Source: Thermodesulfobacteriota bacterium
GTDB taxonomy: Bacteria; Desulfobacterota_D; UBA1144; Nemesobacterales; JAJCZQ01
Reading direction: 5' to 3'
Length of the DNA stretch: 64,000 nt
NCBI GenBank assembly: GCA_965215275.1
Contig: OZ244044.1
Span: forward strand, 736,001 to 800,000
A program made the position numbers and the translations under genes. Below the pieces are notes generated by a model. It saw nothing but the letters and a program-made list of their open reading frames with translations. It had not been told where the DNA came from and made no database searches. Below, in pieces: positions 1 through 58,545 of the stretch (position 1 is the stretch's first letter; the number at the start of each line of letters is the position of its first letter).

Positions 1-2
1 CC

Positions 3-1427
3 TCTGACCACATTCTCTTTTGATATAACGTTCCCAGCTTGCATCGGGAGACTCTCGTCCTTATTCCCACCCGACAAAAAGGATAAACCTCTTTTGAGAA
101 CGTTATTAGCTGCGTTTAAGTCAGCATGGACTTTATAACCACAGGACATGCACTTAAATAACTTTCCTTTTCTGTTATTTTTAGCTACGTATCCGCATGC
201 AGAACAGGTCTGGCTTGTGTATTGGGATGGAACTCTTATTATCTTACCTCCAGTGCTCTCAACCTTGTAAGTAAGCTGACTAAGGACCTTTCCCAATCGC
301 TGTTCCTGTATAGACCTGTTCAATCCTGATTTCTGCTTTACGTTCTTACCTGGATCTTCCACGGTCCCCTTAGCGGACCTTGTCATATTCTTTAACTTTA
401 GATCTTCTACTATAAAATGATTACCATGACCCTTTACTATCCCTGTAGTTAATTCATGTATTTTATTATGTTCCCTTTCAGTGGTCCTTGCACGTTCTTT
501 GGCATAAGCTGTTTTCTTCTTGTTTCTGTTGTTAGATCCTTTTTCTGCTCTGCTTATTGCTCTTTGCTTTCTTTTAAGTTCCTTCCTGTCTATTTCTGTT
601 CCTTTATAGAAAGTTCCATCCGATAAGGTAATTCTGTTCTTCACTCCGAGATCTATCCCTATCGGTCTGTCTGACCCTCTGTCCACTCCTGCAACGGTTT
701 CATATACAAACTGTATCTCTACTCTTAAAGCAGTTCTTACTATCCTTATGTATTTAGTTCCTTCCGGTATCCTGCCTTTGAAACTCATCCTGCCTGCTCC
801 TCTTACCGACAAGGAAGTTCTTCTGTCTTGTTTCTTAACTCTACTCCATTGGTAAGTTTCAAAACTTTTTATCTTTCTGCTACTGTTCTTATATCTCGGA
901 CGACCACGTATCCCTTTTAGATATTCTTTATAAGCCTTATCCAGTCTTTTTAATGTCTTCTGTTGTGCTTGAGCGTCAACCTTACTAAACTCATCAGACA
1001 GTAAAAGGTCGTTCCTTATTTCCGTCAGTGATCTTGCCTGATCTTCGTAACTGATAGATTTCTTTCCTATTTCTTCTTCTGATAACTCTCTCCAGTTTAA
1101 CGGGTCGTTACAAGGTCGGACTTCACTTCTAACCCTGTTAAGAGCTATATATACCTTGTCTATATGTTTAACTGTATTACCTTTATTATAAGAAAGTCCA
1201 GACTTCCAGTGTGGATAGAAATACGTCTTAAATCTCTTTTCTGATAAACCCCATTTCATCAGTTTCTCATATTTATCATATGATCTTATCCTTTCTTCAC
1301 GAGCTCGGTTATAAAGGTAGGTAAGCTGGTTTAATGTATGTTCCAGCTTCTTATGAGCAGACGGGTCTAACTTAACCGCCCTGCGGTCTACTCTCGTTTT
1401 TCTGATCACACTTCCTTCACTATCCAT
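3..1427 (-). CDS. tnpB: RNA-guided endonuclease TnpB (3' end runs off the window; absent from ORF track)
   Basis: Hand translation from ATG 1427 (MDSEGSVIRKTRVDRR...) gives RuvC-I PIGIDLGV, RuvC-II IVEDLKL, zinc finger CSAC/CMSC and RuvC-III HADLNAA in one frame; clear paralogue of 36211..37602. Confidence 0.92.
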   Translation of the reverse strand, partial: MDSEGSVIRKTRVDRRAVKLDPSAHKKLEHTLNQLTYLYNRAREERIRSYDKYEKLMKWGLSEKRFKTYFYPHWKSGLSYNKGNTVKHIDKVYIALNRVRSEVRPCNDPLNWRELSEEEIGKKSISYEDQARSLTEIRNDLLLSDEFSKVDAQAQQKTLKRLDKAYKEYLKGIRGRPRYKNSSRKIKSFETYQWSRVKKQDRRTSLSVRGAGRMSFKGRIPEGTKYIRIVRTALRVEIQFVYETVAGVDRGSDRPIGIDLGVKNRITLSDGTFYKGTEIDRKELKRKQRAISRAEKGSNNRNKKKTAYAKERARTTEREHNKIHELTTGIVKGHGNHFIVEDLKLKNMTRSAKGTVEDPGKNVKQKSGLNRSIQEQRLGKVLSQLTYKVESTGGKIIRVPSQYTSQTCSACGYVAKNNRKGKLFKCMSCGYKVHADLNAANNVLKRGLSFLSGGNKDESLPMQAGNVISKENVVR

Positions 1428-1481
1428 ATCTATATAATTCCCTGATTTACAGCACTATCAAAGCTATTTGCTTGTCTTTGT

Positions 1482-1502
1482 CTAACAGAGTATATAATCC
1501 CC
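1482..1502. repeat. Cassette end motif (right-end orientation) 75 bp upstream of tnpB
   Basis: gagtatataatcccc at 1488-1502; same spacing from the tnpB ATG as the end at 37653-37674. Confidence 0.7.
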
Positions 1503-1770
1503 TAAACTTATATCAAACCGTTAACGTTCGGTCAACTTTTTTAACGGATCAGATCCTTATATTTTAACCTTTTATTCTCCACAGATTTACTCAAAGCAAC
1601 CATACGATCAAGTGTGTCAATGTTTTAAATAGTTATGATAGGCTTATTTAAAATTATTTAAAGTTTTATGTATTTTTGTACATAGTTTCCAGATTTTAGT
1701 AATGTCAACTGCACGGGTATATTTTCATATGAGAACTTATTAACTTAATAGATCTGCAAATTTCGATAAA

Positions 1771-2715: not shown

Positions 2716-2735
2716 CGGACGGCAACAATCCCAAT

Positions 2736-4527: not shown

Positions 4528-4596
4528 TAATAATTTGACATTACGCAGTTAGATTAGAATAATAAACAAAAAACTTTATAAAGGATTATATAAGAC

Positions 4597-7191: not shown

Positions 7192-7195
7192 GTTT

Positions 7196-27307: not shown

Positions 27308-30300
27308 TTAACTGGATTTATAGTCCTGTATCGCTTTTACTTTAAAACCACGGTCCTTTAAGACCTCTATTGCTCCCACTCCTGCCTTGGCAGCTGCCAC
27401 GGTGGTAAAGTACGGCACGTTATACATAAGAGCGGCCCTTCTGATCGACAGTGACTGAGCCACTTCCTTTTCTCCAAATGTCGTATTGACCACCAGCTGA
27501 ATGTCCCCGTTCTTCAGATGGTCCGTAACGTCAGGTCTGCCCTCTATTACCTTGTTTATCTTTTCATTCTCAATGGCGTTGCTCATAAGAAAGTCAGATG
27601 TACCTTTTGTACACATGAGCTTAAAGCCCATCCTGGACAACCTTCTTGACATATCCAGCACGGAATCGTTCTTATCGTCGTCCTTAACGCTTACGAACGC
27701 CGAACCGGCAAGGGGAAGGGTATTTCCAGCGGCCATCTGGGACTTTGAGAAAGCTCCGTTCAGATCATCGTCAATACCCATGACTTCACCTGTGGACACC
27801 ATCTCTGGACCCAGGATCGAGTCAACCTTTGGAAATCTTACAAAAGGAAACACCGACTCCTTGACCGAGTAGTGCTTCGGTACGATCTCCTTTGTAAACC
27901 CGAGATCTTCCAGGGATCTGCCCATCATGACCTTTGTTCCTATATTTACGAGCGGGACCCCTATTGCCTTGCTTATGAACGGTATGGTCCTGCTCGCCCT
28001 CGGATTTGCTTCTATCAGATAAACACGGTCGTTCTTTATTGCAAACTGCACGTTAACGAGCCCTTTGACGTTCAGTGCAAGGGCAAGTTTCTTTGTCTGT
28101 TTTCTGATCTCTTCAAGTATCTTATTTTCGATCGAGAACGGCGGCAGTACCATTGCACTGTCCCCCGAGTGTATACCGACCTCCTCGATGTGCTCCAGTA
28201 TACCTCCGATAACAACGACCTTACCGTCCGATACCGCGTCCACGTCCACCTCTTTGGCACCACTTAAGAACTCATCTATAAGCACTGGATGGTTCTGCGA
28301 CACCTGAACCGCCTCTTTTATATACCTTTTAAGAGCATCCAGTCCATAAACGACCTCCATTGCCCTTCCTCCAAGTACATAAGACGGTCTGACGATCACC
28401 GGGTACCCGATATTTTCGGCTATCTCCACGGCCTCCTCTTCACTTCTTGCTATTCCGTTCCGGGGCTGCCTCAATCCCAGCTTCTGAACCACCTCTCTGA
28501 ACCTCTCACGGTCCTCTGCAAGGTCTATACTGTCGGGTGGCGTGCCGACGATCTTTACTCCGCTTTCCTCAAGGGACAGGGCAAGCTTCAGAGGCGTCTG
28601 ACCTCCAAGCTGTACTATAACTCCCTCGGGCCTTTCCCTGTTCATGATCTCAAGGGTGTCTTCAAGCGTGAGAGGTTCGAAGTAAAGCCTGTCGGACGTA
28701 TCATAGTCCGTGCTTACGGTCTCCGGATTGCAGTTCACCATTATCGACTCGTACCCCTCCTCCTTAAGTGCAAAGGAAGCATGCACGCAGCAGTAGTCAA
28801 ACTCTATACCCTGCCCTATCCGGTTGGGACCGCAACCCAGTATTGCCACGCTCTTCCTGTCCGTCGGCACGGCTTCGCTCTCAGACTCGTACGTGGAATA
28901 AAGATATGGAGTGTACGCTTCAAATTCAGCAGCACAGGTATCCACCATCTTATAAACCGGCTTGATACCTAAATGCTCTCTTTTTTCCCTTACTTCATCT
29001 TCCGGGCAGCCTATAAGGTCAGCTATATGGAAATCCGAGAAGCCCATACGCTTGGCCTCTCTCAACGGCTCCTCTTCCAGACCGCCGACCCCCACTCCCC
29101 TTATCCCTGCCTCAAAATCGATTATCTGCTTTATATTGTATAAAAACCACCGGTCTATCCTGCTGAGGTCATATATCTCTTCGAGCTTCATGCCCCGTCT
29201 GAAGGCATCAGCTATGAACCACAGCCTTTCGGCGTTCGGGACCCTTATTTTTTTCCTTATCAAGTCCGGATCTGAGTACCTGGGTTCAAGACCGTAGGAA
29301 TCTATCTCAAGTGACCTTATCGCCTTGTGAAATGATTCCTTGAAGGTCCTTCCGATGGACATGACCTCTCCAACCGATTTCATCATGGTGGTAAGCGTCG
29401 GGTCTGCCTGCGGGAACTTTTCAAATGCGAACCTCGGCACCTTTACCACTACATAATCTATTGTCGGTTCAAATGAAGCCGGAGTATATTTTGTAATATC
29501 GTTCGATATTTCATCAAGTGTATAGCCAACTGCCAGTTTAGCCGCTATCTTGGCTATCGGAAAACCCGTGGCTTTTGAAGCAAGAGCGGAACTGCGGGAT
29601 ACCCTGGGATTCATCTCGATCACCACTACATCTCCATTTTCAGGGTCAATGGCAAACTGTATGTTAGACCCTCCCGTATCCACCCCTATCTCCCTGATTA
29701 TTGACACGGAAGCGTCCCTTAATACCTGATACTCCTTGTCGGTAAGGGTCTGAGCAGGTGCAACTGTTATACTGTCGCCCGTGTGAACTCCCATGGGGTC
29801 GAGGTTCTCGATCGAGCATATTATCACCACGTTGTCCTTACAGTCCCTCATCACCTCGTATTCAAACTCCTTCCAGCCTATCACGGACTGCTCCACCAAG
29901 ATCTCGGACACAGGACTCATATCCAGGCCTGACTTTGCCTGATCCTCAAACTCCTCTATATTGTAGGCGATGCTCCCTCCCGTACCTCCAAGGGTAAAAG
30001 ACGGCCTTATTATGATCGGATATCCTATCTCCTTTGATATCTCCCAGGCTTCGTCCATGTTATGGGCAACTCCGCTCCTTGGAACGTTCAGTCCGATCTT
30101 CAGCATCGCGTCTTTGAAAAGCTCTCTGTTCTCCGCTTTTTTTATAGCGTCTAACTTCGCTCCGATGAGTTCAACGCCGTTCTTCTCCAGTACGCCGGAC
30201 TCTGCCAGTGCAACTGCAACGTTCAAAGCCGTCTGTCCTCCGAGGGTGGGAAGAAGTACATCGGGTTTCTCGATCTCTATTATCTTCTCGACCACCTCCG

Positions 30301-30511
30301 GTACAATAGGCTCAATGTAGGTCCTGTCAGCAATGCTCGGGTCGGTCATTATCGTGGCAGGGTTGCTGTTTACAAGTATTACCTTGTACCCTTCGTCCTT
30401 AAGGGCCTTGCACGCCTGGGTTCCCGAGTAGTCAAATTCACACGCCTGACCGATCACGATCGGTCCGGAACCTATGATCAATACGCTGCTTATATCTTTT
30501 CTTTTTGGCAT
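27308..30511 (-). CDS. carB: Carbamoyl-phosphate synthase large subunit
   Basis: [10 protein letters not shown], two ATP-grasp domains, MGS domain. Confidence 0.99.
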
Positions 30512-30604
30512 TGCATAAATTACTTTAAGAACTGGAGAGAAAATAAAAATTTATAGATAGTTAATTTTACACCTGCAAACAGGTAGAACAGCAACTATGT
30601 CAGG

Positions 30605-31318
30605 TCACAATATTGAAATATTAATCGGTTTCCTGTTGTTATAATGGTCTTCAATCTCAGAATAATCCATAAAATGACAACGGTTCTTTATATCTTTAAA
30701 TATAGATCTTCCAACTTCCTTATTGTATTTAGTTTTCCTTCCATTAGGAGCAACTAATATAAACTGAGTATTAAAATCCTGTAATTCAAACAACCTTAAA
30801 AGCGAGTCATTAAAATCCGAGGTGTGTTCAACTTCAAATGCTACTTGTGGAAATTCTCTATCATTAAACCAAATAACGTCAATATATTTTGACTTATTAA
30901 TTATTGTTTCTTTGGTGGTAAAGACGGGAATTGTTTCCATTGTAATTATTTTACCCAGTTGCTTATTACCAAAAAAATGTTTTTTATCAGGAGTATAGGT
31001 ATCAAAACTCTGCATATTGCCAATTTCAATTAACATGCCTTGAATATCAGCATGTTTTTGTCCCATAGATGTACTTGCTTTTTTTGGTCGCGGCACTTTA
31101 GCCAGTTGTTTTGTAAGTGCATAAACTCCATACCCAATACAAGTAAATCGGTCCTCGCGTTGAAGTCGCTCTCGGATTGTTGCATCGGGGTCTTTGCCAG
31201 TACGCGGGCGATAATTGTCAAGATTTTTATAGATCAATTTCAACGGTGCATAACCACCGTTGTCACGCAATACCATTTCTATCGCCTTTGAATATGTTAT
31301 CTCCTTGCGAGTGGTCAT
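30605..31318 (-). CDS. Winged-HTH plus PD-(D/E)XK restriction-endonuclease-like protein
   Basis: N-terminal HTH-like segment (TGKDPDATIR), IDVIWF...AFEVEH; probable start MTTRK at 31318. Confidence 0.7.
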   Translation of the reverse strand: MTTRKEITYSKAIEMVLRDNGGYAPLKLIYKNLDNYRPRTGKDPDATIRERLQREDRFTCIGYGVYALTKQLAKVPRPKKASTSMGQKHADIQGMLIEIGNMQSFDTYTPDKKHFFGNKQLGKIITMETIPVFTTKETIINKSKYIDVIWFNDREFPQVAFEVEHTSDFNDSLLRLFELQDFNTQFILVAPNGRKTKYNKEVGRSIFKDIKNRCHFMDYSEIEDHYNNRKPINISIL

Positions 31319-31427
31319 AATTATATTTACCTCCGATATAACAATTTCTGGTATCGGTTTAACATCAAGACCATACACCGACCTAATACACCTGAAATTT
31401 ATAACTTATTGAATATTTATCAACTGC

Positions 31428-31545
31428 TTACGCCACTTTCCCACAGATTTTCGTTCATTTCTCCTTAAATTCTTCTGCTTTTTCATCAAGTCCTCTCTGG
31501 ATCGCATCTATATCGATAGACAGGTTGAACTGGTCCTTCCATCTG
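31428..31545 (-). pseudogene. Duplicated, internally deleted 3' fragment of thiC
   Basis: Matches 33755-33844 joined to 33992-34025. Confidence 0.85.
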
Positions 31546-31576
31546 TAAATAAAGGGGAAATCAAGATTTATTTTTA

Positions 31577-31594
31577 TTTATGTATATAATTCCC
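31577..31594. repeat. Cassette end motif (right-end orientation), no partner found
   Basis: tttatgtatataattccc; 17-bp exact reverse complement of 63318-63334. Confidence 0.65.
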
Positions 31595-31643
31595 AAAGTT
31601 AAAATGGAAAAAACACTTCCGGTGGTGCTACGGGTATTTTAAG

Positions 31644-31702
31644 ATCAGAAGAGCAAGAAGAACTCTGCAATCAGAAGAGCAAGAAGAACTCTGCAATCAG
31701 AA
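31644..31702. repeat. 26-bp tandem repeat x2.3
   Basis: atcagaagagcaagaagaactctgca twice plus atcagaa. Confidence 0.9.
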
Positions 31703-31748
31703 CAGTAAGGATATTGTTGTCAAACGATATTTATAGTTTCCACAAACA

Positions 31749-32384
31749 TCATTCATTTTCCAACCGTTTTATTTCATTCTTTATCTGATCTATCACTTCA
31801 GGATTTTGTATAATCTTTTGATCTCCACTTTTTATTGAAAAAATATAAAAAACCTCCCCACCATACTTTTTTTTGAACTTCTCGTGGCTTTTCTTTTGAA
31901 AAGAACGCTCTTTAAATATCTGCTCTATATGTGAAACATCGTTCACGGGTTTAACCTGTAAACCAATATATTTATCTGAAACTTTTATAAAAAAATCAAC
32001 GTTAAATAATCTGTCCCACTCATCCGGAGACGGTTCAATCTTAATTCCCAGTTTTTGCTCCAATTGACCGTATATAGTTGTTCTTTCCGTCTCATATCCA
32101 TCAAAAGTTCTGTTGATAACCATATCAAACATATACTTAATACAGTCTTCTTCGGTTATATCTCGAACTTCTGCTGAAATAACTTCGGTAATTTTCACAT
32201 ATAGCCTTCTTCCCAAAGATTCAATGTGTTCCTTATCATAAACATTCTCAAAATAGTATTTCTCCCAATCTTCAAGAATTTTCGGACTGCATTTTCTAAT
32301 TTCTTCCGAAACAGCACCAACGTTCCGTTTAAAATTCAATTGAAAACGGTTCATCACACTGTTTAAAATCCATTCTTTAGGCAA
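31749..32384 (-). CDS. MjaI family type II restriction endonuclease
   Basis: KEWILN...NVG, VDFFI...GLQVKP; adjacent to an MTase. Confidence 0.8.
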   Translation of the reverse strand: MPKEWILNSVMNRFQLNFKRNVGAVSEEIRKCSPKILEDWEKYYFENVYDKEHIESLGRRLYVKITEVISAEVRDITEEDCIKYMFDMVINRTFDGYETERTTIYGQLEQKLGIKIEPSPDEWDRLFNVDFFIKVSDKYIGLQVKPVNDVSHIEQIFKERSFQKKSHEKFKKKYGGEVFYIFSIKSGDQKIIQNPEVIDQIKNEIKRLENE

Positions 32385-32388
32385 TTAT

Positions 32389-33702
32389 TCATACCCCTTT
32401 TTTCATGTTTTCATAATTCAGGAATTTTTCATAATATTTATACTTAAATCTATCGTCCGTTGAAGCAAGTCCATTTTTTATCAGATGAGCGTTAATGAAA
32501 GTTTTATTCTTCAAATACATATAACAAAGCAGTTTATCCTCGTCGTTGTACTTTACTTCATCAAACTTTAAAAATACTTTCTGACCGGTGGTTTTTTCTT
32601 TAAGGAAATCTTTTGCGGTGGATATCTTCTCCTTAATTGGCTTAACTCCAATAAGTTTAACTTTCAAACCAGTGTTCATTATCATTTCGTTTGGGGAACA
32701 AATTTCCCTGACCGAAAAATATTCTTTTTCAGTATTTGGATCATTATTGATCTTTGATCCGAATTGTAAATCTCTCGGATCAACCCTTTTATCAATTTTT
32801 ACAGTATCTCTAAAAATATAAGGCAGTTTATCTATCTCATCTCTGTAATCTTTAATTTTCTTGCCTGCTTTAGTGGTTCTGACCATCGCCTTTTGAAAGA
32901 CCTCCGGTTCGGATACGCCGAGCTTATTATTGATAACTGGAAGAAACTCATCGTTTATCTCATACCCGACCGAGTTTCTATTTAAATTGATCGCACTTAA
33001 ACACGTTGTTCCACTACCTAAAAAAGGGTCTAACACTGTATCGCCAACAAAAGAGAACATCTTTATTAATCGGTTGGGTAACTCCAGGGGAAACATCGCA
33101 AGATGCTTGTCCTGCTTCTCACCTGAAAAATTCCAATGCCCGCAGAAGTATTTATTCCACTCTTCTTTTGTCATTCTGGAACTTTCCCTGATCTCTTTTT
33201 TAACCTTTCTTGCTCGTCCCAGCTTCTTAAATAACAGGATAAATTCATAATCGATCTTTATAACCCCATTATTAGGATAGGGATAAGAACCCATTACAGT
33301 TGCTCCGCCGGTGGTATTGGACGTAATGACTTTCTGCCAGATAACAGCTCCCATATAATCAAAACCGATCGTCTCACAAAACTTAATTATTTCCGTTCTT
33401 ATCGGAATGACCTTATACCGCCCATAATAAACAGAACGGGCAAACTGGTCTCCTATATTTATACAAAGCCGACATCCGCTGTCTAAAACACGGTAGCATT
33501 CCTTCCAGACAAGGTTTAAATTATTGATGTAATCCTGATATGAATCGTCAAATCCTATTTGATCACCACTTCCATAATCTTTGAGTTGCCAATACGGTGG
33601 AGAAGTAATTACAAGATGAACCGATGAATCTTCAACGAGTTCCATGTTCCTCGAATCACCTATTATGATCTCATGGTTCGTTTTCATAAAATTAATTTCC
33701 AA
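32389..33702 (-). CDS. DNA amino-methyltransferase with C-terminal thermonuclease(SNase)-like domain
   Basis: TSPPY, LDPFLGSGTT; C-terminal VKLIGV...LLCYMYL...FINAHLIKNGLA. Confidence 0.88.
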   Translation of the reverse strand: MEINFMKTNHEIIIGDSRNMELVEDSSVHLVITSPPYWQLKDYGSGDQIGFDDSYQDYINNLNLVWKECYRVLDSGCRLCINIGDQFARSVYYGRYKVIPIRTEIIKFCETIGFDYMGAVIWQKVITSNTTGGATVMGSYPYPNNGVIKIDYEFILLFKKLGRARKVKKEIRESSRMTKEEWNKYFCGHWNFSGEKQDKHLAMFPLELPNRLIKMFSFVGDTVLDPFLGSGTTCLSAINLNRNSVGYEINDEFLPVINNKLGVSEPEVFQKAMVRTTKAGKKIKDYRDEIDKLPYIFRDTVKIDKRVDPRDLQFGSKINNDPNTEKEYFSVREICSPNEMIMNTGLKVKLIGVKPIKEKISTAKDFLKEKTTGQKVFLKFDEVKYNDEDKLLCYMYLKNKTFINAHLIKNGLASTDDRFKYKYYEKFLNYENMKKGV

Positions 33703-35686: not shown

Positions 35687-36106
35687 TTAAGCTTCTCTTG
35701 AGGTCATATAGCTGCGAATGGCCTCCCAGTATTTCCACCAATAGGAGTTTTCAGGATGATTTGCCTTTTGCTGCTCCGTCCAGATCATTGCCTGCTCCTT
35801 GTCCTGATAAAGAAGGAACTTCTCTGCCGCGTCCTTTATCTCATCCTGATCTATCTCGATCTTGTTAAGGTCCTCTGATATAGCCGTGCTTATCTCGTCC
35901 AGAGAACGGTGGATCTTATCACACGCCTCCACGATACTTTCCGATTGACCACTGGTATCCTGACCGATAAGGTCCGCGTTGCCTTTGATCAGATCGACAA
36001 AATCAAGCAGGTGATCAGATGATCTTTTTGCTTTTTTAACCTCTTCTATAATTCTTGTATAGTCTTTTGCTGTCGGTGGCATTTTTTCCTCCTTGTTCTT
36101 TATCAA
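35687..36106 (-). CDS. Hypothetical helical protein
   Basis: ORF in host-like codon usage; probable start MPPTAK after GGAGG. Confidence 0.6.
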   Translation of the reverse strand: MIKNKEEKMPPTAKDYTRIIEEVKKAKRSSDHLLDFVDLIKGNADLIGQDTSGQSESIVEACDKIHRSLDEISTAISEDLNKIEIDQDEIKDAAEKFLLYQDKEQAMIWTEQQKANHPENSYWWKYWEAIRSYMTSREA

Positions 36107-36120
36107 CTACTTTAACTTAA

Positions 36121-36260
36121 GGGACTTATATACTTTAGTACATAAGTACTAAACATACTGTTCTGCAAGCAGAGTCCCTCTTAATTCCCCGTTCTCTTTT
36201 GATAAAACATTTACAGCCTGCATCGGGAACTCAAGTCTGGCTGTCCCACCCGACATAGTG
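36121..36260 (-). ncRNA. Putative omegaRNA scaffold overlapping the tnpB 3' end
   Basis: Conserved with 1-76 and 58417-58545; perfect hairpin tttagtac-ttat-gtactaaa; tcggg/cccga stem. Confidence 0.6.
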
Positions 36261-37602
36261 TCTTTTCACTATTGCAAATGTTTATAGCTGCATTCGTGTC
36301 TGCATGGTCTTTATGACCGCAATACACACACTTAAATACTTCTCCTTTTCTGTTCCTTTTATCTCTGTATCCGCACTCAGAACAGGTCTGTGACGTCCAT
36401 TGAGCCGGGTTCCTGATCAGCTTGCCACCAGTGCTTTTAACCTTGTATTCAAGCTGATTTAATACCTTGCCCAATTGCTGTTCCCGTAAGGACCTGTTTA
36501 ATCCAGATTTCTGCTTTACTTTCTTACCCGGATCTCCCACGGTCCCCTTTGCCGATCTGCTCATATCCCTTAATCTCAGATCTTCTGATATAACAAAATT
36601 ATACGCTCTTGACAGTTCTGTAGTTAACCTGTGTATTTTGTTATGTTCCTTTATTGCTGTTCTTGCTCGTTCCTTCCCAAGCAGTTTTACCTTCTTCTTT
36701 CTCCCGTTGGAACCTTTTTCAGCTCTTGAAACTGCTCTTTGCTTTCTTTTGTCTTTCTTTCTGCTTACTTCAGTTCCCTTGTAAAACGACCCATCTGATA
36801 AAGCAATCCTGTTCCTTACTCCAAGGTCTATTCCTATCGCTCTGTCCAGTCCTCTGTCCTCTCCAGCTATTGTTTCGTAAATAAACTGGATCTCTACTCT
36901 TAAAGCTGTTCTTAATATCCTGATGTATTTTGTTCCTTCCGGTATGCTTCCTCTGAATGAGATCCTGCCTGCTCCCTTTACCGTTAAATATGTCCTTCTC
37001 TCTCCTTTCTTTACATTTCCCCATGTATATGTTTCAAAACTTCTTACCTTCCTGCTGCTGTTCTTATATCTAGGACTGCCTCTCAATCCTTTAAGATGTT
37101 CACTGTATGCCTTATCCACTCTCTTTAACGTCCTTTGCTGTCCCTGAACGCCTGCCTTGCTGAATTCTTTCAATAAAACATCATTCCTTATCTCAGTCAG
37201 TGACTTCGCCTGATCTTCGTAACTTACTGACTTCTTCTTTATCTCCTGTTTTGTTAACTCTCTCCAGTTAACTGGATCTTCGCAAGGTCTTATAGTACTT
37301 ACAAACCTGTTAACTGCTTCATAAACTGTATCCAGATATTTAACTCTGTTCTTCTTGTTGTAAGAAGTACCAAACTCCCATTGTGGGTAGAAATACATCT
37401 GTAATCTTTCTTCTGACAAACCCCACTTCTTCAGCTTCTTGTATTTTTTGTACGCTTCTTTCCTTTCTTCCAGAGCGCTGTTATACAGATAGGTAAGCTG
37501 GTCCAAAGTCCTTTCCAAACCCTTATGAGTTGAAGGGTGATTCAATCCAGCCACTCTGCGTTCCGTCCTCGTCTGCTTAATTATCCTGTTTTCTCTATAC
37601 AT
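36211..37602 (-). CDS. tnpB: RNA-guided endonuclease TnpB
   Basis: AIGIDLGV, ISEDL, CSEC/CVYC, HADTNAA: RuvC D-E-D intact. Confidence 0.95.
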   Translation of the reverse strand: MYRENRIIKQTRTERRVAGLNHPSTHKGLERTLDQLTYLYNSALEERKEAYKKYKKLKKWGLSEERLQMYFYPQWEFGTSYNKKNRVKYLDTVYEAVNRFVSTIRPCEDPVNWRELTKQEIKKKSVSYEDQAKSLTEIRNDVLLKEFSKAGVQGQQRTLKRVDKAYSEHLKGLRGSPRYKNSSRKVRSFETYTWGNVKKGERRTYLTVKGAGRISFRGSIPEGTKYIRILRTALRVEIQFIYETIAGEDRGLDRAIGIDLGVRNRIALSDGSFYKGTEVSRKKDKRKQRAVSRAEKGSNGRKKKVKLLGKERARTAIKEHNKIHRLTTELSRAYNFVISEDLRLRDMSRSAKGTVGDPGKKVKQKSGLNRSLREQQLGKVLNQLEYKVKSTGGKLIRNPAQWTSQTCSECGYRDKRNRKGEVFKCVYCGHKDHADTNAAINICNSEKTLCRVGQPDLSSRCRL

Positions 37603-37730
37603 TCCTCTGTAATTATACCACGATCACACTTAGCTATTAAGTCCTTTGTTGGGTACTTAAGTATATAAGTCCCCAATTTTTTATTATGTTTATCCAACTC
37701 GTGATTTGTTTAAAGAATAAAGGTTAAGAT

Positions 37731-37895: not shown

Positions 37896-37940
37896 GTACT
37901 AAAGTATATAGTCCCCTTTTTTATTAAAGTATATAAGTCC
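37896..37940. repeat. Two further right-end motif copies
   Basis: gtactaaagtatatagtcccc (37896-37916) and ttaaagtatataagtcc (37924-37940). Confidence 0.8.
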
Positions 37941-37954
37941 GTCAATTAATGATC

Positions 37955-50024: not shown

Positions 50025-50031
50025 CCGGCTT

Positions 50032-51909: not shown

Positions 51910-54571
51910 ATGTTTAAGATAATACCCCCCCCCATCTAAGTCATTACTAACTTTAGTCTTTATTCTTCTGTTTATACTGGTAATAGCTGCAAAAGGGCAG
52001 AGCAGCCTGGAAGAAACATTATCTGAATGCAGAGATATCAGTGCAGGAACGGAAGATCCGTTATACGGATGTCAGTGGCATCTGAAGAACACAGGACAGT
52101 TAATTTATTCAGGTAAGAGAATAACATCAGGAGAAGATATAAACATAGAGGGAGTGTGGAACGAAGACGTATACGGTGCCGGAATTAACGTAGCAGTAGT
52201 AAGTGACGGCATAGACCTTTCACACGAGGACCTTTCTGCTAACGTCCGTTCCGGACCGAACTATGATCTTTCTGAAAGAAACAATTCAGAAGAGAACAGT
52301 TCAGAAAAAGATAATTCAGAAAGAGATGATCTTTCAGACGGTTCATCCTTTACCGGAACACGAGCGGCAGGAGTAACAGCAGCAACTGGATATAACGGAC
52401 TGGGAGTAAGAGGAACAGCACCTGGTGCGAGTATATACAGTTACAGGTTATCCGGTGATCTCAGTGAAGCGGACGCGGTGGTCCGTAATAAGGAAATAAC
52501 GGCAGTATCGGTTAACGGCCGGGGATCTGAGGACGGAGCTTTTTTTCAGGAGGCTTTATCTTCCTGGGAAGAAGGAGTGGAACTTGGTATAAGTAAAGGG
52601 TTTTATGGTAAAGGAGTGTTTTACGTCCGGGGAGCAGGGGACGGGCATGAGAATAACGATCAGGCTAATTTTTCTGAATATTCTAATTACTACGGCGTAA
52701 CTGCCGTGTGTTCAACAGACGGCTTTGGAAAAAAGAGTATATTTTCAGAAGAGGGAGTAAATCTATGGGTATGTGCACCTGGTTCTGATATTGTAACTAC
52801 TGATAACAATAACGATTACGTTGTAACATCCGGAACTGTCCTATCAGCTTCACAGGCTGGAGGAGTGGCAGCACTGCTGAGAGAGGTGAATGGAAATCTG
52901 AGCTGGAGGGATATAAAGCTTATACTTGCGGGTTCAGCACGGCAGAACGACGTTTCTGACCTTATCTGGGAGACTGGAGCATTTAAATACGGCTCTGACG
53001 TGGAAAGATATAAATATAATCCTAAGTATGGTTTTGGAGTGGTAGACGCGGAAGCAGCGGCAGAGCTTGCAGAAAGCTGGAAAGGCGTTGGTGAGATGAG
53101 GACCGTTACAGCCTTTTCAGATAATGAGATAACAATTCCTTATGGAGAAGGGAATGGAGAAGGAGAGGCAGACGGGGTCGCTGTCTCAGGACTTATTATC
53201 CCTGACCTTGAAGAAACAACGTTTACGGAGTTCGTTGAAGTTGAACTTGTTCTCTCGTGTGACTGCTTACAGGACCTCAATATAAATATAACCTCTCCTT
53301 CCGGGACAGTATCTGAACTTGTGCGGGAGGTTGTAAGTGGACCTTCGGATGAAAAAGAAAAGAACTGCGTCAGTTACCTGAGAAGAACACATCGTTTCGG
53401 GTCGGCAAGACACCTCGGAGAAGACCCTTCCGGAGAATGGATCCTTCATATAACTGATACTGCTTATGGAGATGAAGAAAATGAAGAAAACACCGTTACC
53501 CTGCACTCATGGAGCGTTAAGGTGTATGGACATTTTTATCAGGGATCTGGCAGTGAGATCACTCCTAAAGCTTTAACCTTCGGCGGTGCGACGATCCCAA
53601 CCCAGAATTATTTTGTAGGAGAAGCAATAACACCAGTAATGCTGCCTGAGGCAACCGGGGCAAGCGACATAACATACAGTTTTAATCCTGCTTTAGCAAG
53701 AGGATTGGAATTTGATCAGGATACCCGAACTATAAGCGGAACACCAGCTATTACTCATGTGTCAGGTCGTTTGTATTCATATGTTGCAAGAGGTGGCGGA
53801 CGGATTGTAACTATACCTTTTACTATTAGAATTAGCCCTCGACGAGTGCCGACCTTCGGCAGTGAGACCATAGATAATAAAGTGTATATAAACGGCATTA
53901 CAGCAGTAAATGAAACACTGCCTGAAGCAACGGGAGGGAATGCTCCATTAACTTACAGTTTAAGCGGTACTTTACCTATTGGAGTAATTTTTACCGCAAA
54001 CACCAGAGAGTTAAGTGGAACACCCAATGTTGATAATAATCTAAGTATACTTCCTTTAACTTTGTCTTACACATATAAAGTAACAGACAATGATGGAGAT
54101 ACAGAAGAGATAACGTTCAGTATCACTACAGAAGAAGACAGCGACCCGGACTTCAGCGGTGTGACAATACCTGCTCAGGTGTACAGGGGGAGAACAATAA
54201 GTCTGCCTGAAGCAACGGGAGGGAATGCACCGTTAAGATACAGTATAGATCCTCGTTTACCGACGGGAATGAGATTGAACGAAGACACAGGGGTAATAAG
54301 CGGGACGCCCGCGAGTGCGTCGTCTGAGAGGACCTACACGTACACGGTAACGGACAGGAATGGAGGTACGGACGAGTTGACTTTCATGCTCAGTGTAGCG
54401 GCACCTCCACCGACATCAACGGGCAGTGGTTCAGGCGGAGGTGGAGGAGGATGTGCGATATCAGATCAGAGCAGCACTGCTTCTGATATTCTCGGAGTAA
54501 TGATATGTCTGATGCTCATACCTGTGTCAGTAGTGATTAGAAGGAAGAGAAGAGATCAGGTAAAGAATTAG
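51910..54571 (+). pseudogene. Kexin-like S8 homologue 2 (catalytically dead), signal peptide out of frame at a C9 tract
   Basis: ATG 51910 hits TAA 51937; removing one C gives signal peptide plus DPLYGCQWHL in frame with 52154..54571; D->S, H->T, S->V. Confidence 0.8.
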
Positions 54572-54821
54572 CAATGAGATTATTTTCCAAAACACTGAAC
54601 GAATTAAAATCTCTCAGCCAGAATAAAGGAATAATAGTGGAAAGACTAAATATAGATCTATCGGCAAATGGGTACCTTGATGGTATTGATGCTTGTTTTT
54701 TTAATCTCGGACAATACAGTATATAATGCCCAAAGAAAAACATCTAGAAAGTAAATTAAATTACCTTATTCTTGTCTTTCTAATTGAAACAATAGTCACA
54801 ACTTATAACTTTAATCTCAGG

Positions 54822-56168
54822 TTAAACACATATGTCGGATAAAGTATCAACATGGGGCAACTGGTTATTGTCTGTGAAACTCTGAAGATGTATAACTTCT
54901 GTTTTTTGTTTTTGTAGTTTTATTTGTTTGACAATATTACTGACTACTCTTGTATTTACAGCATTGCCTAATGCTCCAAAGGCAAAAGATTCCATGTCGG
55001 GCAGGCTGATATCCTTAAATCCTTGTAATTCTTGAGCTTCCCTTAGGCTTAAATAACGCTTCTCCCAGGAAATAATCGGCGTTTGAGTTCTTGTTAAAAC
55101 TAAAGAAGGAATTGACGCACGACTTTTTACACGAATGCCAGACGACCTAAACTGTAGTAAGTATTTAAAAATATCTCTTTCTCCATCACCAGCGTTCCAT
55201 TCCAATTTCTGCCAACTATTAGGATAAATCCTTACTTCATTTATTATAGATTTAATATATGTTTTGTTCTTCTGCCAAAAATCTCTATTTTTTTGAATAT
55301 ATTTAATTTTCCATTTTGGAAATTCTTTTTGTTTATATGTAGCGTAAACAGGTAGTTTTTCCAACTGCACTTTTTTTGGAAGTCCTTTTAAACTTCGACC
55401 AAATGCTCCCTTGTAATTTGATAATTCTTCTTGAGTCATATAAAAAGGACATTTACCATCTATAGGATAGTTGGCTCCAAACTCCATTGACCATACTGGA
55501 AATTTAGGTAAGGGTTTGTTTTTAGGCAAACATGCTATAAACCTTTGCCAGAAACTTAGACATTTTAACTGCTGATTAGAAAGTTTTTTGGCGTTTGTAG
55601 GATTGTTTTTTAAAAAATTTTTTATGTCATCAATTTCTTTTTCTTCTTGTTTAAAATCAAACATAACACTTCTTTCTTTTTTATGTGTTCCTACAATAAA
55701 CACCCTATTCCTATTATTAGGTATACCGAAGTGATGTGGGGAGAGAATAAAATCTTTCACTATATAGTGACAATCTTCTAACAAGTTCTGGATGATTTCC
55801 CATGTCTTTCCATGGTCATGTGATTTAAGATTTGGAACATTCTCCAGAATGAAGTATTCGGGTTGGTGATATTTTAGAACTCTTATAATCTCATAAATCA
55901 TTTCACCCGACTTAACATCACTAAACCCCTTTTGGTTTCCAGCTTTAGAAAAAGGTTGGCATGGAAATCCTGCACACAGTATATTATGTTCTGGGATTTT
56001 GGTTTCATGTATTTGAGTAATATCTCCATGACATTGCATCCCAAAGTTTTTCTTGTATAAGGATCTGAGTTTAGTATCAATCTCTGAAGCAAAAACACAT
56101 TCTAGTCCTTCATCTTTTAAAGCAATATGAAAACCTCCTAACCCTGCAAAAAGATCTATAAATTTCAT
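54822..56168 (-). CDS. DNA (cytosine-5)-methyltransferase
   Basis: DLFAGLGG, GFPCQPFS, ENV, LGNAV. Confidence 0.95.
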   Translation of the reverse strand: MKFIDLFAGLGGFHIALKDEGLECVFASEIDTKLRSLYKKNFGMQCHGDITQIHETKIPEHNILCAGFPCQPFSKAGNQKGFSDVKSGEMIYEIIRVLKYHQPEYFILENVPNLKSHDHGKTWEIIQNLLEDCHYIVKDFILSPHHFGIPNNRNRVFIVGTHKKERSVMFDFKQEEKEIDDIKNFLKNNPTNAKKLSNQQLKCLSFWQRFIACLPKNKPLPKFPVWSMEFGANYPIDGKCPFYMTQEELSNYKGAFGRSLKGLPKKVQLEKLPVYATYKQKEFPKWKIKYIQKNRDFWQKNKTYIKSIINEVRIYPNSWQKLEWNAGDGERDIFKYLLQFRSSGIRVKSRASIPSLVLTRTQTPIISWEKRYLSLREAQELQGFKDISLPDMESFAFGALGNAVNTRVVSNIVKQIKLQKQKTEVIHLQSFTDNNQLPHVDTLSDICV

Positions 56169-56986
56169 ACTTGGATTCTATCTTCAAGTTTAAGTTTTTT
56201 TATATCTGAACGAATAGATTCGATTTCTTTATTATTAGAATTGGCTAAAAGCCTAATCAGTCTAACGCGGTCCAGAATAAATCCTTTCTCACTCGATTCA
56301 CCAAGAGTTTCCTGGCTATTGTCCACAAGTAAATCTGCTATAGCAAAAACCTTTATCGGTTGTGCTCCAAACTCAATAAGGTTTTTCCACATATCAATAT
56401 TAACAGGAAAACCCTTTTTCCATTTTTGACCTGATTTACATTCTACCAAGAGAATAATTTTGCCTCCTACTTGATCCAAGGGTTTCCATACAATTATATC
56501 AGATCTTATATTGTCAGAATGTCGAAAAGTTTTATTAGCATCATGTCGAGGTTTTTCATGAAGTTCTTCATTGCAAAACCTTTCAAAATCACACGACTTT
56601 TTGAGAATATCAATAAATTTATATTTGGTATTGTCCCCTAAATAACTCTTAATCGCCTCAGCGGTTATCTTTTCAAAATATTCTGATATATGATAACCAT
56701 CGTTTATTAGTATAGCAGAAATACAAAGCAAATATTCTTCCCTAGCTCTAAATTTTTTATCAAATTCTATCAATTCAGAATCTTCATCATAACAGAATAC
56801 GGCTTCCCCGTATAACCCAACTAAATCTTTACACCTGTTAAACTTATCATTTAGTTCATTCTCAACATTACAACCTTCAATATCATAATCTTCGTTGGTA
56901 TTTTCTTCAATTTCACTCCGTAATTTATGTTTAGACACTGAATTACGCAAAAGTAAATATTTTTCCACATCTATTAAGTCACTCAT
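56165..56986 (-). CDS. Hypothetical protein with PD-(D/E)XK-like motif
   Basis: SDIIVWKP...LVECKSG; overlaps both neighbours. Confidence 0.65.
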   Translation of the reverse strand: MSDLIDVEKYLLLRNSVSKHKLRSEIEENTNEDYDIEGCNVENELNDKFNRCKDLVGLYGEAVFCYDEDSELIEFDKKFRAREEYLLCISAILINDGYHISEYFEKITAEAIKSYLGDNTKYKFIDILKKSCDFERFCNEELHEKPRHDANKTFRHSDNIRSDIIVWKPLDQVGGKIILLVECKSGQKWKKGFPVNIDMWKNLIEFGAQPIKVFAIADLLVDNSQETLGESSEKGFILDRVRLIRLLANSNNKEIESIRSDIKKLKLEDRIQV

Positions 56987-58097
56987 TACTAAACTTCTTA
57001 TTGATATCCTCTGTAATATATAGAATTGACTCTATATTTTTCTTTAACTCTGTCCCGACATCGTGGAATAAAACGTTTTCTATTTTCATTCCAGATAACT
57101 TGCCGTTGATTTTTTCCAAATTATCTCGTGCTGATTTAGAATACTTTGCCAAGGCATGAAATTCGCCTCCAATCATATCGAATGAACTATTTATGTTTTC
57201 ACCTTGTTCTAGATCTGCTGTAGCTTCAGCATCTGCAAATATAAGGTTTAATTTGTTTGTTATATCTCTTGATTCTTTTATTAACGAGTTTCCATATTTT
57301 TTAGAATCAAACAAACATCGGAACAAGAATTTCAACTTCTCTTTTTTATCGGTTGGTATTGGGTCGTCCCAATCTTTTATATCTTTCCAAGCAGGCAATC
57401 CAATATAATCTTTTATTGGTCCTTGCCCAGTAGCCAATTGCAAAAATGAAAAATTACTTTTAGCATCTTTAGTGTCAAGACTCTCATCGTACTCTTCAAT
57501 TATCTCTATCAGACGATAGCAAGCATATGTCTTTTTTGATGAATTTTTCCTATCCCCGATTATTTTTTGAATATCTTCAAGGGTATAGCCTTTATCCCTT
57601 TTAAGTTGAACAATGTATCTAGCTCTCTCATAAACATCCCATTTCCTAACCCCAGCTAAGTGATGGACTCCCAAAAAACGCAAAACTTCATCTCTGCTTG
57701 GATAAAACAAAACCGGCAAATCAGTAAATTCACTTATAAGGTTAGGCGAGGCAGGTATGCCGGGAAATTCATTGTTCTTTAGTCCAATTATTGTAGCGAG
57801 CCTTCTGTTACCTTCCGCTACAATAAACTTATTTGTTTGATCTTCGTGATAGTTTTCATAGTCTTGTTTGGTTTTAATATCTCCTTTTTCGGGAATTACC
57901 ACTAAAGGTTCTGCTTCAAAATACCCATTTTCTACCATAGAAAACGCTAACTCTTCCAAGTCATAAGCCTTCTTCATATGATTTTGTATTTGTTTCTGCT
58001 CTCCTTTTGCAATACTCTCAGGCAGTCTTGGATTTTTACTATCCAAAATTAGTCTGTCTGAATTCACTCTAATAATTCTAGGTTTTATTTTTCCCAT
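56979..58097 (-). CDS. ParB/Srx N-terminal domain protein
   Basis: LDSKNPRL, EPLVV, VAEGNRRLA. Confidence 0.75.
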   Translation of the reverse strand: MGKIKPRIIRVNSDRLILDSKNPRLPESIAKGEQKQIQNHMKKAYDLEELAFSMVENGYFEAEPLVVIPEKGDIKTKQDYENYHEDQTNKFIVAEGNRRLATIIGLKNNEFPGIPASPNLISEFTDLPVLFYPSRDEVLRFLGVHHLAGVRKWDVYERARYIVQLKRDKGYTLEDIQKIIGDRKNSSKKTYACYRLIEIIEEYDESLDTKDAKSNFSFLQLATGQGPIKDYIGLPAWKDIKDWDDPIPTDKKEKLKFLFRCLFDSKKYGNSLIKESRDITNKLNLIFADAEATADLEQGENINSSFDMIGGEFHALAKYSKSARDNLEKINGKLSGMKIENVLFHDVGTELKKNIESILYITEDINKKFSNE

Positions 58098-58416
58098 GAT
58101 ATTTTTAGAAAATTATATAGATAATATGACAAAAGTATAAAGATCTTTCCATTTTCTTTATACGTTCTGAAAATATGTAAAAATTTTTGCGATTTTTTTA
58201 CATATTAACTCTTCATTGCTTTACTAAATATGATAATTTAAGTACTATATTCTTCTGTTTTTTTACTCCTTTCTATTTTACCATAAAAGTCTTGGAAACC
58301 CTGTGAATTCTTGTTTTATGATTATTTCATCTTCTTCATCTCTGGCTTTTAACACTCTTGTGTTGGCATAATTGATATAGTCCCACTCCTTGTATTATAA
58401 TTCCTAAACAGCCAAA

Positions 58417-58545
58417 GGAAATAATATATTTTAGCACCAAAGCACTAACTACACTGTTTTACGAGCAGGTATCCTCTGTCCCTGAAACCTTTTGAGTTAA
58501 AACATTCCCAGTTCGTATCGGGAGACTCTCGTTTTTCTCACAGGT
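58417..58545 (-). ncRNA. Orphan omegaRNA-like sequence without tnpB
   Basis: Collinear with 36121-36230 and 1-58 (atcgggagactctcgt identical to 43-58). Confidence 0.6.

Follow-up and report, generated by a model that had tools for sequence, protein, structure and literature searches.

Probable omega RNA scaffolds of TnpB in tnpB-only cassettes with IS1595-type ends

Introduction

Repeated sequences at the 3' ends of tnpB genes raise two questions: whether they encode a guide RNA, and what kind of mobile element they belong to. The case considered here is a 64,000-nucleotide stretch of a Thermodesulfobacteriota bacterium genome (assembly GCA_965215275.1, contig OZ244044.1, positions 736,001 to 800,000), hereafter the window. 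A sequence-only reading had described one omegaRNA-like scaffold at three loci, in the tnpB sense and under structural selection. That description held for loci 1 and 2, where stems covary, covariance models match and the right ends fold, and probably fails for locus 3, which has no tnpB. The repeats are probably omega RNA scaffolds of TnpB, carried by tnpB-only cassettes that have IS1595-type terminal inverted repeats (TIRs) and 8-bp target-site duplications (TSDs) and were likely moved by IS1595 transposases.

Repeats and hairpins in the window

The similarity between the three loci is well above chance in whole-genome blastn searches. With the query extended into the bases left of the window, locus 1 matches locus 2 at 81% over 143 nt (E 2e-29) and locus 3 at 70% over 117 nt (E 1e-7). 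The minus-strand hairpins are as previously described, UUUAGUAC-uuau-GUACUAAA at 36134-36153 (locus 2) and UUAGUGC-uuug-GUGCUAA at 58431-58448 (locus 3), and the two stem differences between them are indeed A to G changes opposite U. The hairpin is not terminal, as had been supposed: at locus 2 a further 13 nt of inverted repeat (36121-36133) lie beyond it, and its 3' arm is the inner part of the TIR. The locus 1 hairpin falls just outside the window (genome 735945-735985) and has a weakened upper stem, at -5.2 kcal/mol versus -10.6 at locus 2. A fourth, weaker copy had been overlooked, and Rfam at its gathering threshold returned only tRNAs from the window. The predicted scaffold features are:

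1..76, minus strand: locus 1, 5' portion, comprising stem 1, the pseudoknot loop and the 5' strand of stem 2; covariance-model match, E 3e-4
Genome 735937-736000, left of the window: remainder of locus 1, with the right TIR and right TSD
36121..36254, minus strand: locus 2, scaffold predicted in full; a relatives-only model matches at E 5e-4
36249-36254/36222-36227, minus strand: locus 2, stem 1
36243-36247 with 36121-36125, minus strand: locus 2, pseudoknot between loop and tip
36216-36221/36165-36170, minus strand: locus 2, stem 2
About 36130-36158, minus strand: locus 2, stem 4, containing the hairpin 36134-36153
31635..31741, plus strand: fourth scaffold, a degenerate orphan with a TIR-like tip at its end; covariance model E 0.04, nhmmer E 4e-5

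tnpB cassettes with IS1595-type ends

Loci 1 and 2 each lie at the right end of an element that carries a tnpB gene:

3..1427, minus strand: tnpB copy 1, 484 aa including its part beyond the window, with intact D-E-D columns, above the NF040570 cut-off
1477..1502, minus strand: left TIR of element 1, 23/26 match to the right TIR
1503..1510, minus strand: left copy of the element 1 TSD, 8 bp, 8/8 identical to the right copy
36211..37602, minus strand: tnpB copy 2, 463 aa, D258/E339/D434 (0-based numbering)
36121..36146, plus strand: right TIR of element 2; its minus-strand sequence forms the 3' arm of stem 4 and likely the 3' strand of the pseudoknot
37648..37673, minus strand: left TIR of element 2, 22/26 match to the right TIR
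36105..36120, minus strand: predicted 16-nt guide of element 2, the first bases beyond the right TIR, placed by the pseudoknot register
37896..37941, minus strand: two more TIR-like sites upstream of element 2, in the same orientation, taken as the remnant of a nested or adjacent IS1595-type element

The two window proteins score 163 and 177 bits against NF040570 (cut-off 100) and match PF07282 and PF01385. An intact RuvC D-E-D triad and a zinc finger are present at loci 1 and 2 and lacking at locus 3; across the genome, all 19 TnpB copies have the D/E/D columns. The catalytic E sits in its canonical place, about 95 residues before the third catalytic D, and the TnpBs of loci 1 and 2 have 60-odd extra residues near the N-terminus compared with ISDra2. 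A promoter scan gave six sites against 4.2+/-2.0 expected by chance, which is uninformative; 10 nt upstream of tnpB2 there is one extended -10 site.

TIR pairs of about 26 bp, identical at 16-26 of 26 positions, flank all 19 tnpB elements examined in the genome. Twelve of these have a TSD of at least 7/8, nine of them perfect, while the controls gave 3 of 342 for mismatched pairings and 8 of 15 for autonomous IS1595 elements; the other seven, locus 2 included, have no clean TSD. Among the window loci the match is 8/8 at locus 1, 4/8 at locus 2, where the duplication is not preserved, and absent at locus 3. Elsewhere, an 8-bp TSD was found at 29 of 57 parsed loci of one lineage (y) and 8 of 11 loci of another (x). 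The duplications are A/T-rich, as is typical of the IS1595 family, and the cassette TIRs match those of transposase-bearing elements at 16-24 of 24 positions (best of 15 autonomous elements). The genome contains 28 IS1595 transposase matches (PF12762), of which 13 went unused as fragments or for want of clear ends. None lies inside a cassette, the nearest being 2.3-124 kb from each of the 19 elements, and no element combines an IS1595 transposase with tnpB among these 19 or among 23 transposase loci of relatives.

Elements of the IS200/IS605 and IS1341 groups have neither TIR nor TSD and rely on a Y1 TnpA in cis or in trans. IS607 elements use a serine recombinase TnpA and also lack TIRs and TSDs, and Fanzors occur in eukaryotic or viral hosts and have a rearranged RuvC-II glutamate near the zinc finger. 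The boundary found here, an IS1595-type TIR followed by an 8-bp TSD, does not correspond to the standard IS200/IS605 end. IS200/IS605 or IS1341 identity was rejected on the TIRs (19/19), the TSDs (12/19) and the single weak Y1 match in the genome, for which the sole NCBIfam match, to a REP-associated tyrosine transposase, was below cut-off. IS607 was set aside as no serine recombinase was found (no PF00239 match in the 99.87% complete genome; NF038280 below cut-off). No recognisable transposase of either family was present in the genome. The cassettes are not autonomous IS1595 elements, as they have no DDE transposase gene, nor Fanzors, the genome being prokaryotic and the catalytic E canonical. 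From their shared ends and many insertion sites, mobilization in trans is inferred: the cassettes are likely non-autonomous IS1595 derivatives moved by transposases encoded elsewhere in the genome. Contigs over loci 1 and 2 (four runs each) contained no joint that skips the element; coverage was patchy, so that the missing empty-allele joint counts neither way.

A covarying scaffold at the 3' end of tnpB

The stems covary across 20 copies from the genome itself (including four hand-picked orphans of about 16) and 56 copies from relatives, one duplicate RNA having been removed. In the own-genome alignment, 86.6% of cells are paired, with double changes in 13 of 30 pairs; in the relatives' alignment, the values are 90.9% and 16 of 36. 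None of 500 shuffles reached the observed pairing in either alignment, and slid controls gave 33-49%. A tree-aware count found 54 coincident changes against a null of 14.5+/-3.5 (0/5000) and, in a second set, 15 against 7.6+/-2.3 (8/5000); at one stem 4 pair whose 3' base lies in the TIR, all seven changes were coincident. These figures come from structures drawn after seeing the alignments, from related and recombining copies, and from an approximate tree null that is not R-scape.

The model built from relatives only had 16 matches in the genome, all on the sense strand at tnpB 3' ends. Unprompted, RNAalifold recovered stem 2 and the helix between loop and TIR tip from the own-genome alignment; on the relatives' alignment it predicted neither stem 4 nor the pseudoknot. 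Folded singly, the sense strand gives z-scores of only -0.6 to -2.0. For right-end 45-mers the folding energy is -9.3 kcal/mol versus -3.0 at left ends (stronger in 15/16) and -4.4 at autonomous right ends, and in relatives the right end folds more strongly in 43 of 44 cases, 13 of 57 lineage-y loci with a weak TIR match being left out. The hairpin is much commoner at the right ends of tnpB cassettes than at their left ends or in autonomous elements.

The predicted pseudoknot is indicated mostly by conservation. In the relatives' alignment, its four core pairs are 96-100% paired with a single double change. The fifth is compensated in three of four clade-2 copies and unpaired in 15 of 56 relatives, and the sixth is unpaired in 29 of 56. 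Part of the conservation may be protein-coding, since in most clades the scaffold lies largely within the tnpB frame, with the stop 17-29 nt from the tip. The loop motif is, however, kept in two reading frames, and clade 2 preserves the fold in another frame and beyond the stop codon. The strand-specific G-U pairing previously proposed reaches significance, counted by pairs, in the relatives' alignment (G-U over A-C in 18 versus 6 pairs, p 0.02) and not among the genome's own copies (10 versus 8).

A conserved, structured scaffold is present at the tnpB 3' end on the sense strand, and the repeats at loci 1 and 2 are likely guide-RNA scaffolds of TnpB. A tnpB2 search of genome contigs for distant loci found none. 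Eighty metagenome loci added nothing to the alignment, being distant (26-40%) and lacking an IS1595-type TIR pair of at least 18/24 (0/80).

Predicted guide start and TAM

In ISDra2, the pseudoknot strand lies at about positions -6 to -2 before the guide (PMC10097598). The TIR tip likely closes the pseudoknot in the same register, in which case the guide would start at the TSD. With at most one mismatch allowed, 18 of the 19 guides predicted in this way have no match outside their own flank.

A one-sided G directly 5' of the TSD looks like the TAM. It precedes 27 of 28 unique lineage-y sites, and the mirror position has G in 5 of 28 (Fisher 1e-9). From this count 5 of 62 loci were missing as unparsed, 28 of 57 had been dropped for a TSD below 7/8 and one duplicate site had been removed. 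The same G is found at 7 of 7 clade-3 sites with a TSD of at least 6/8 (34/35 combined, mixing thresholds of at least 7 and at least 6) and at 1 of 14 autonomous IS1595 elements, a small control for which 6 of 25 relatives' loci were parsed and 19 left out. In the clades of loci 1 and 2, the base is A at 4 of 4 sites with a TSD of at least 6, not distinguishable from autonomous elements (A in 4/8). A TAM at the left end with a variable guide at the right is seen as a sequence signature only.

Locus 3 and other orphans

Locus 3 differs from the other two:

58417..58545, minus strand: decayed orphan scaffold with right TIR (58417-58442); model E 1.3
58672..61002, minus strand: secreted S8 subtilase/P-domain/Ig-like gene, upstream of the locus 3 scaffold in the usual place of tnpB
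61593..61618, minus strand: TIR-like site upstream of the S8 gene, without a TSD match; possibly the left end of the locus 3 cassette

Stems 2 and 4 are kept, while degeneration has affected the pseudoknot loop and the 5' strand of stem 1. With these broken and no tnpB, locus 3 is probably not a working scaffold, and the two G-U substitutions offered earlier as evidence of selection belong to it. Most likely it represents a right end in decay that remained when tnpB was lost or a protease gene took its place. That this and similar orphans are maintained as trans-acting omegaRNAs, lending guides to TnpB from other loci, is decidedly unlikely. The genome does hold about 16 orphans or fragments, stem 2 of locus 3 shows two compensatory double changes relative to loci 1 and 2, and its stem 4 stays paired despite the two G-U changes. 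These compensations may, however, be inherited from an intact ancestor; orphans decay in differing ways, and locus 3 scores at noise level with its degenerate stem 1 strand and loop.

Proposed mechanism and alternatives

In the proposed model, the tnpB-sense transcript would cross the right TIR and fold like the ISDra2 scaffold, with stems 1-4 and a pseudoknot. An internal arm would have co-evolved to pair with the inner TIR as stem 4, and the 6 terminal nt of the TIR would be left for pairing with the stem 1 loop, which is of GGGAA type. The TIR tip would occupy the -6 to -1 register as at the ISDra2 right end, so that the first base of the right TSD would also be the first of the guide. The motif immediately preceding the left TSD would serve as the TAM; it reads (T)G in lineage y and clade 3, and in the clades to which loci 1 and 2 belong it probably ends in A. 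TnpB would then cut empty alleles (TAM, one TSD and flank), driving re-copying of the element, while a filled locus would present only a TAM with some 8 matching bases at its left junction and would have no TAM at its right one. An IS1595-family element has been described to form a circle joined by one 8-bp repeat (PMC12561309).

The register could be shifted if the first one or two TSD bases belonged to both TAM and scaffold, so that the guide began at base 2 or 3, as in Fanzors and IS607 TnpBs, whose scaffolds take in bases from the flank (PMC10711439). All 16 elements of clades 1-3 have T as TSD base 1, versus 3 of 14 autonomous ones, and their mirror base is A in 8 of 16; in lineage x, base 1 is A in all 11 elements. 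The lineage-x bias is, however, partly symmetric (T at base 8 in 8/11), base 1 is not fixed in lineage y (A17/T10/C1) and the TIR tip already fills ISDra2 positions -6 to -1; this shift is unlikely, and a TAM that always includes TSD base 1 was dropped as the main model on account of the lineage-y variation. By eye, pairing of TSD base 1 with the base preceding the pseudoknot loop followed no consistent rule in either alignment.

Two further readings differ more radically. The guide might begin right after the upper hairpin, which stops 13 nt short of the tip, so that the last 13 TIR nt were the guide and TnpB targeted IS1595 ends in host-transposon control or competition, with about 280 TIR-like sites in the genome as potential targets. 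This is extremely improbable: compensatory changes (columns 112-117/139-144) show stem 4 extending into those 13 nt, the stem 1 loop and the tip are complementary, a motif beyond the TSD is understandable only if the flank is targeted, and the element would attack its own ends. The hairpin could also be a DNA-level feature, either a partially duplicated TIR for the transposase or a product of template switching, with coding conservation upstream and no structured RNA. Its 3' arm is TIR and would be conserved for DNA reasons, and the region overlaps the tnpB frame over much of its length. Against a DNA-level origin, stems 1-3 covary outside the TIR, left ends and autonomous elements have a much weaker hairpin, and G-U cells outnumber A-C cells by 173 to 22 in the relatives' alignment; the clade-2 fold in its other frame and past the stop codon argues against coding alone, making this reading very improbable.

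On top of the omega RNA model, a rather unlikely extension is that the TnpB RNP steers insertion by the borrowed IS1595 transposase, that the TIR tip was pre-adapted to complete the pseudoknot and that the RNA-bearing shells came to transport secreted protease genes. Steering, if true, would explain the G before 27/28 insertions against 1/14 in autonomous IS1595, and pre-adaptation would have enabled at least two TnpB lineages to capture IS1595 ends separately.

Relation to known systems

The cassettes resemble ISDra2 (PMC10097598) in the intact RuvC triad, in a predicted RNA that overlaps the gene 3' end and reaches the element end, and in its four predicted stems, with a putative pseudoknot that would join the stem 1 loop to about -6 to -2. 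Unlike in ISDra2, the right end is a TIR with an 8-bp TSD and not an end recognised by Y1, the TIR goes into stem 4, and there is no associated Y1 TnpA.

Closer in architecture are the DDE-1 to DDE-6 and solo TnpBs (PMC10691335), with a prokaryotic tnpB between inverted terminal repeats. The DDE-associated group has the tnpB 3' end within 250 bp of the element end, and the solo TnpBs share ends with transposase-bearing elements and are mobilised in trans. In the available text of that paper, IS630 is named for the DDE-TnpB branches, IS1595 figures only in a list of comparison families, and no RNA structure or TAM position was found for these branches. A 2026 review (PMC13565253) names ISL2, IS630 and IS1031 as TnpB-associated, and PMC12507524 concerns IS607 TnpB; no report of an IS1595-TnpB association was found among literature titles and abstract openings. 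ISApl4, of the IS1595 family, has terminal inverted repeats and A/T-rich 8-bp direct repeats (PMC12561309), and PF12762 DDE transposases with matching ends are present in the same genome; the cassettes differ from such elements in having only tnpB and its RNA and no transposase.

Fanzor1 and Fanzor2* (PMC10711439, PMC13565253) also have the TIR in the guide-RNA scaffold and represent nucleases captured by cut-and-paste-type elements, but they are eukaryotic, their TSD enters TAM and scaffold, and Fanzor1 has lost the pseudoknot, whereas the cassettes apparently retain it and have their main one-sided motif outside the TSD. TnpB in TIR elements and the TIR as scaffold being already published, this is a variant rather than a new class.

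Section 6.2 of the same review leaves open why OMEGA nucleases rarely pair with prokaryotic DDE transposons and how they cope with TSDs. The cassettes offer a testable answer to the TSD problem that is unlike Fanzor's: the pseudoknot would be kept with the TIR tip as its 3' strand, the internal arm would co-evolve with whichever TIR is present, and the TAM would lie outside the duplication. The 19 elements of the genome, together with about 60 from relatives, make it possible to predict from sequence where the scaffold begins and ends, where the guide starts and a short TAM ending in G, which may be useful in mining for compact nucleases with relaxed TAMs.

tnpB Cassettes with IS1595-Type Ends

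The window carries two tnpB genes and three stretches that the sequence-only reading had aligned as copies of one omegaRNA-like scaffold, here called loci 1, 2 and 3. The homology holds for all three: locus 1 matches locus 2 at 81% over 143 nt (E 2e-29) and locus 3 at 70% over 117 nt (E 1e-7).

1-76, minus: locus 1, predicted scaffold
3-1427, continuing beyond the window, minus: tnpB copy 1, 484 aa; 3' end overlapped by locus 1
36121-36260, minus: locus 2, aligned stretch holding the predicted scaffold (36121-36254)
36211-37602, minus: tnpB copy 2, 463 aa; 3' end overlapped by locus 2
58417-58545, minus: locus 3, scaffold remnant

Both TnpB proteins score above the NCBIfam TnpB cut-off and retain D-E-D. 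The scaffold had been placed over the 3' end of tnpB, which is correct for loci 1 and 2 but not for locus 3, where no tnpB was found in the 1.8 kb upstream. Taken together, the evidence makes it quite probable that loci 1 and 2 carry the omegaRNA scaffold of a TnpB-system variant with IS1595-type ends, decayed at locus 3.

The genome is a single contig of 1.99 Mb (99.87% complete) with 23 TnpB zinc-finger matches. Analysis was confined to the 19 near-full-length elements, which fall into four clades. All 19 are flanked by inverted repeats of about 26 bp that start with GGG. A target site duplication (TSD) matching at 7 or more of its 8 positions accompanies 12 of the 19 (9 perfect, locus 1 among them), compared with 3 of 342 mismatched pairings; 8-bp repeats rich in A/T are typical of the IS1595 family (PMC12561309). 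There are 28 IS1595 transposase matches in the genome, and 15 autonomous elements that carry a transposase share this type of terminal inverted repeat (TIR; best match 16-24/24), with a TSD in 8. None of the tnpB elements contains a transposase, the nearest being 2.3 kb away. Genome-wide, no resolvase was found, and the single weak Y1 match resembles a REP-associated tyrosine transposase. Since their ends are common with those of transposase-bearing elements and there is no internal transposase, the tnpB elements can be regarded as non-autonomous IS1595-type cassettes, which IS1595 transposases would mobilize in trans.

At genome positions 1616480-1619604, cassettes with tnpB genes from two different subclades meet left TIR to left TIR, with only their two 8-bp TSD copies between them. 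In the autonomous IS1595 element at 675417-678070, whose TSD is perfect, a second gene of 342 aa is present; by eye it resembles a DNA methyltransferase with a fused HNH-type domain. A long inverted duplication at 29758-32486 is made of two IS1595 transposase remnants.

A Structured RNA at the Right End

MAFFT alignments of 20 copies from this genome and of 56 copies from relatives (lineage y, a related TnpB group) served as the basis for drawing the RNA fold by eye, after which pairs were counted. In the own-genome copies, 86.6% of positions are paired as drawn and 13 of 30 pairs show double changes; the lineage-y figures are 90.9% and 16 of 36. None of 500 shuffles attained the observed paired percentage, and slid structures gave 33-49%. 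Because the copies are related, coincident changes were also counted on a tree, against an approximate null: 54 were found in lineage y versus 14.5±3.5 expected (0/5000), and 15 in the own-genome copies versus 7.6±2.3 (8/5000). Four of the six pairs of stem 2 are compensated among the own-genome copies, as are four of six in lower stem 4 in lineage y, where the internal arm thus follows changes in the TIR. A covariance model built from relatives only finds locus 2 in the window (E 5e-4) and 16 sites in the genome, all on the sense strand and all at tnpB 3' ends. Rfam has no model matching this RNA. The proposal of a functional omegaRNA under structural selection thus finds good support at loci 1 and 2, with their covarying stems, but not at locus 3.

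Against this, single-sequence folding z-scores are modest, RNAalifold does not predict stem 4 on the lineage-y alignment, and the tnpB reading frame covers much of the scaffold. Clade 2, to which locus 2 belongs, nevertheless retains the scaffold in a different frame, with a stop codon 90 nt before the TIR tip. The G-U pairing that had been offered as a strand-specific signal favors the tnpB sense strand in lineage y (G-U to A-C cells 173:22; 18:6 pairs, p 0.02) but not significantly in the own-genome copies (64:16; 10:8 pairs). The minus-strand hairpins reported at loci 2 and 3 are exact in sequence, but they are not terminal, as 13 further TIR bases lie beyond, and the 3' arm is the inner half of the right TIR. 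This location would also suit a DNA feature bound by the transposase; the terminal 45 nt, however, fold more stably at cassette right ends (-9.3 kcal/mol) than at left ends (-3.0) or autonomous right ends (-4.4), which argues against it.

The stem 1 loop, GGGAAU, and the TIR tip, AUUCCC, are complementary. In clade 2 the partners are GGGAC and GUCCC, with a compensated pair in three of four copies, and RNAalifold on the own-genome alignment picks this long-range helix. In ISDra2, -5U to -3C pair with -103A to -105G, while -6G and -2A pair non-canonically with -102U and -106G, as described in PMC10097598. With the tip here taken as -1, U falls at -5 and C at -3, the same pseudoknot register. 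There is little variation in the core pairs, however, and 15 of 56 relatives lack the fifth pair, so a pseudoknot between loop and tip is likely rather than established. With such a pseudoknot, the guide would begin at TSD base 1.

Target Site Signature

At 27 of 28 unique sites in lineage y, the left TSD is directly preceded by a G, versus 5 of 28 mirror positions (Fisher 1e-9; background 20%), and the same holds at all seven clade-3 sites with a TSD of at least 6/8. Only 1 of 14 autonomous IS1595 elements, two of which have y-like TIRs, has a G there. This one-sided G probably belongs to the target-adjacent motif (TAM). Loci 1 and 2 come from clades with A at this position (4/4), which is indistinguishable from background. 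All 16 clade 1-3 elements have T as the first TSD base, whereas lineage y is mixed at that base; a TAM that extends into the TSD is a less likely alternative. Relative to clade 3, the TnpBs encoded at loci 1 and 2 are longer by about 65 residues in the N-terminal region, coinciding with the lost G signature; the TAM-recognition region is possibly altered.

Between the filled left junction and the predicted 16-nt guide only 2-12 positions agree, and at the right junction the -1 base is the C of the TIR. Both are consistent with self-protection of the filled locus. ISApl4, of the IS1595 family, makes a circle joined by one repeat (PMC12561309); the same here would leave a donor site with one TSD. 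No empty allele was seen in contigs covering loci 1 and 2, where coverage is patchy.

Relatives and Possible Repeated Capture

Lineage y is present in 22 of 36 genomes of genus g10, in the same order; 57 of 62 loci could be parsed, with a TSD of at least 7/8 in 29. The four other genomes in the window's own family gave no match at E ≤ 1e-30. In a FastTree tree, lineage x, sister to clade 4, stands apart as a clade of its own with good support. It has a different RNA, and it too has IS1595-type ends (TSD at least 7/8 in 8 of 11), which suggests that TnpB captured such ends at least twice. One lineage-x protein is labelled ‘Candidatus Dadabacteria bacterium’ at NCBI. At one further locus (G019 contig 4), what comes after an x-related tnpB is not a TIR but a set of short direct repeats that looks like a CRISPR-like array.

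PMC10691335 describes six branches of DDE-associated TnpBs that have inverted repeats, along with solo TnpBs mobilized in trans; its running text mentions IS1595 solely as a comparison family. A review (PMC13565253) names ISL2, IS630 and IS1031, and Fanzor scaffolds are predicted to contain TIR and TSD (PMC10711439). A literature search, with subscription papers mostly outside its reach, found no report of an IS1595-TnpB pairing.

Locus 3 and the S8 Protease Genes

Locus 3 retains stem 2, with two compensatory changes and one mismatch, and stem 4, with two G-U changes. The 5' strand and loop of stem 1 are lost, and the covariance model scores the locus no better than noise (E 1.3). A secreted S8 protease gene lies about 125 nt upstream of it; a TIR-like site precedes that gene (61618), and there is no TSD. 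We take locus 3 to be the decaying right end of a cassette whose tnpB was replaced or lost; that the retained stems belong to an RNA acting in trans is a lesser alternative. A fourth copy of the scaffold, degenerate and with a tandem duplication inside it, lies at 31635-31741 (plus strand), adjoined at 31594 by an oppositely oriented TIR-like site.

The protease gene belongs to a family of secreted S8 subtilase/P-domain/Ig-like genes, about 57 genome-wide (58672-61002 and 52154-54571 in the window), that share a glycine-rich C-terminal tail. Scaffold remnants occur within 800 nt downstream of 6 of 60 S8-family C-termini, versus 7 of 600 random windows. Of 57 genes, 21 have a TIR-like site upstream and 17 have one downstream, versus 9% and 3.6% for random windows that were not matched for intergenic position. 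In the five genes with sites on both sides, TSDs are not preserved. The enriched TIR sites and the remnants suggest that the family may have spread as cassette cargo.

Two further conserved sequences of 100-200 nt, each with a TIR-tip end, lie 3' of several S8 genes (for example at genome 1355579, 1680492, 1507927 and 1614482). They do not match the scaffold profile and could mark the right ends of further cassette or RNA families. Just past locus 3, behind a TIR-like sequence near 58380, a C5 DNA methylase gene and two Pfam-less genes (54822-58097, minus strand) possibly form a restriction-modification cassette with IS1595-type ends.
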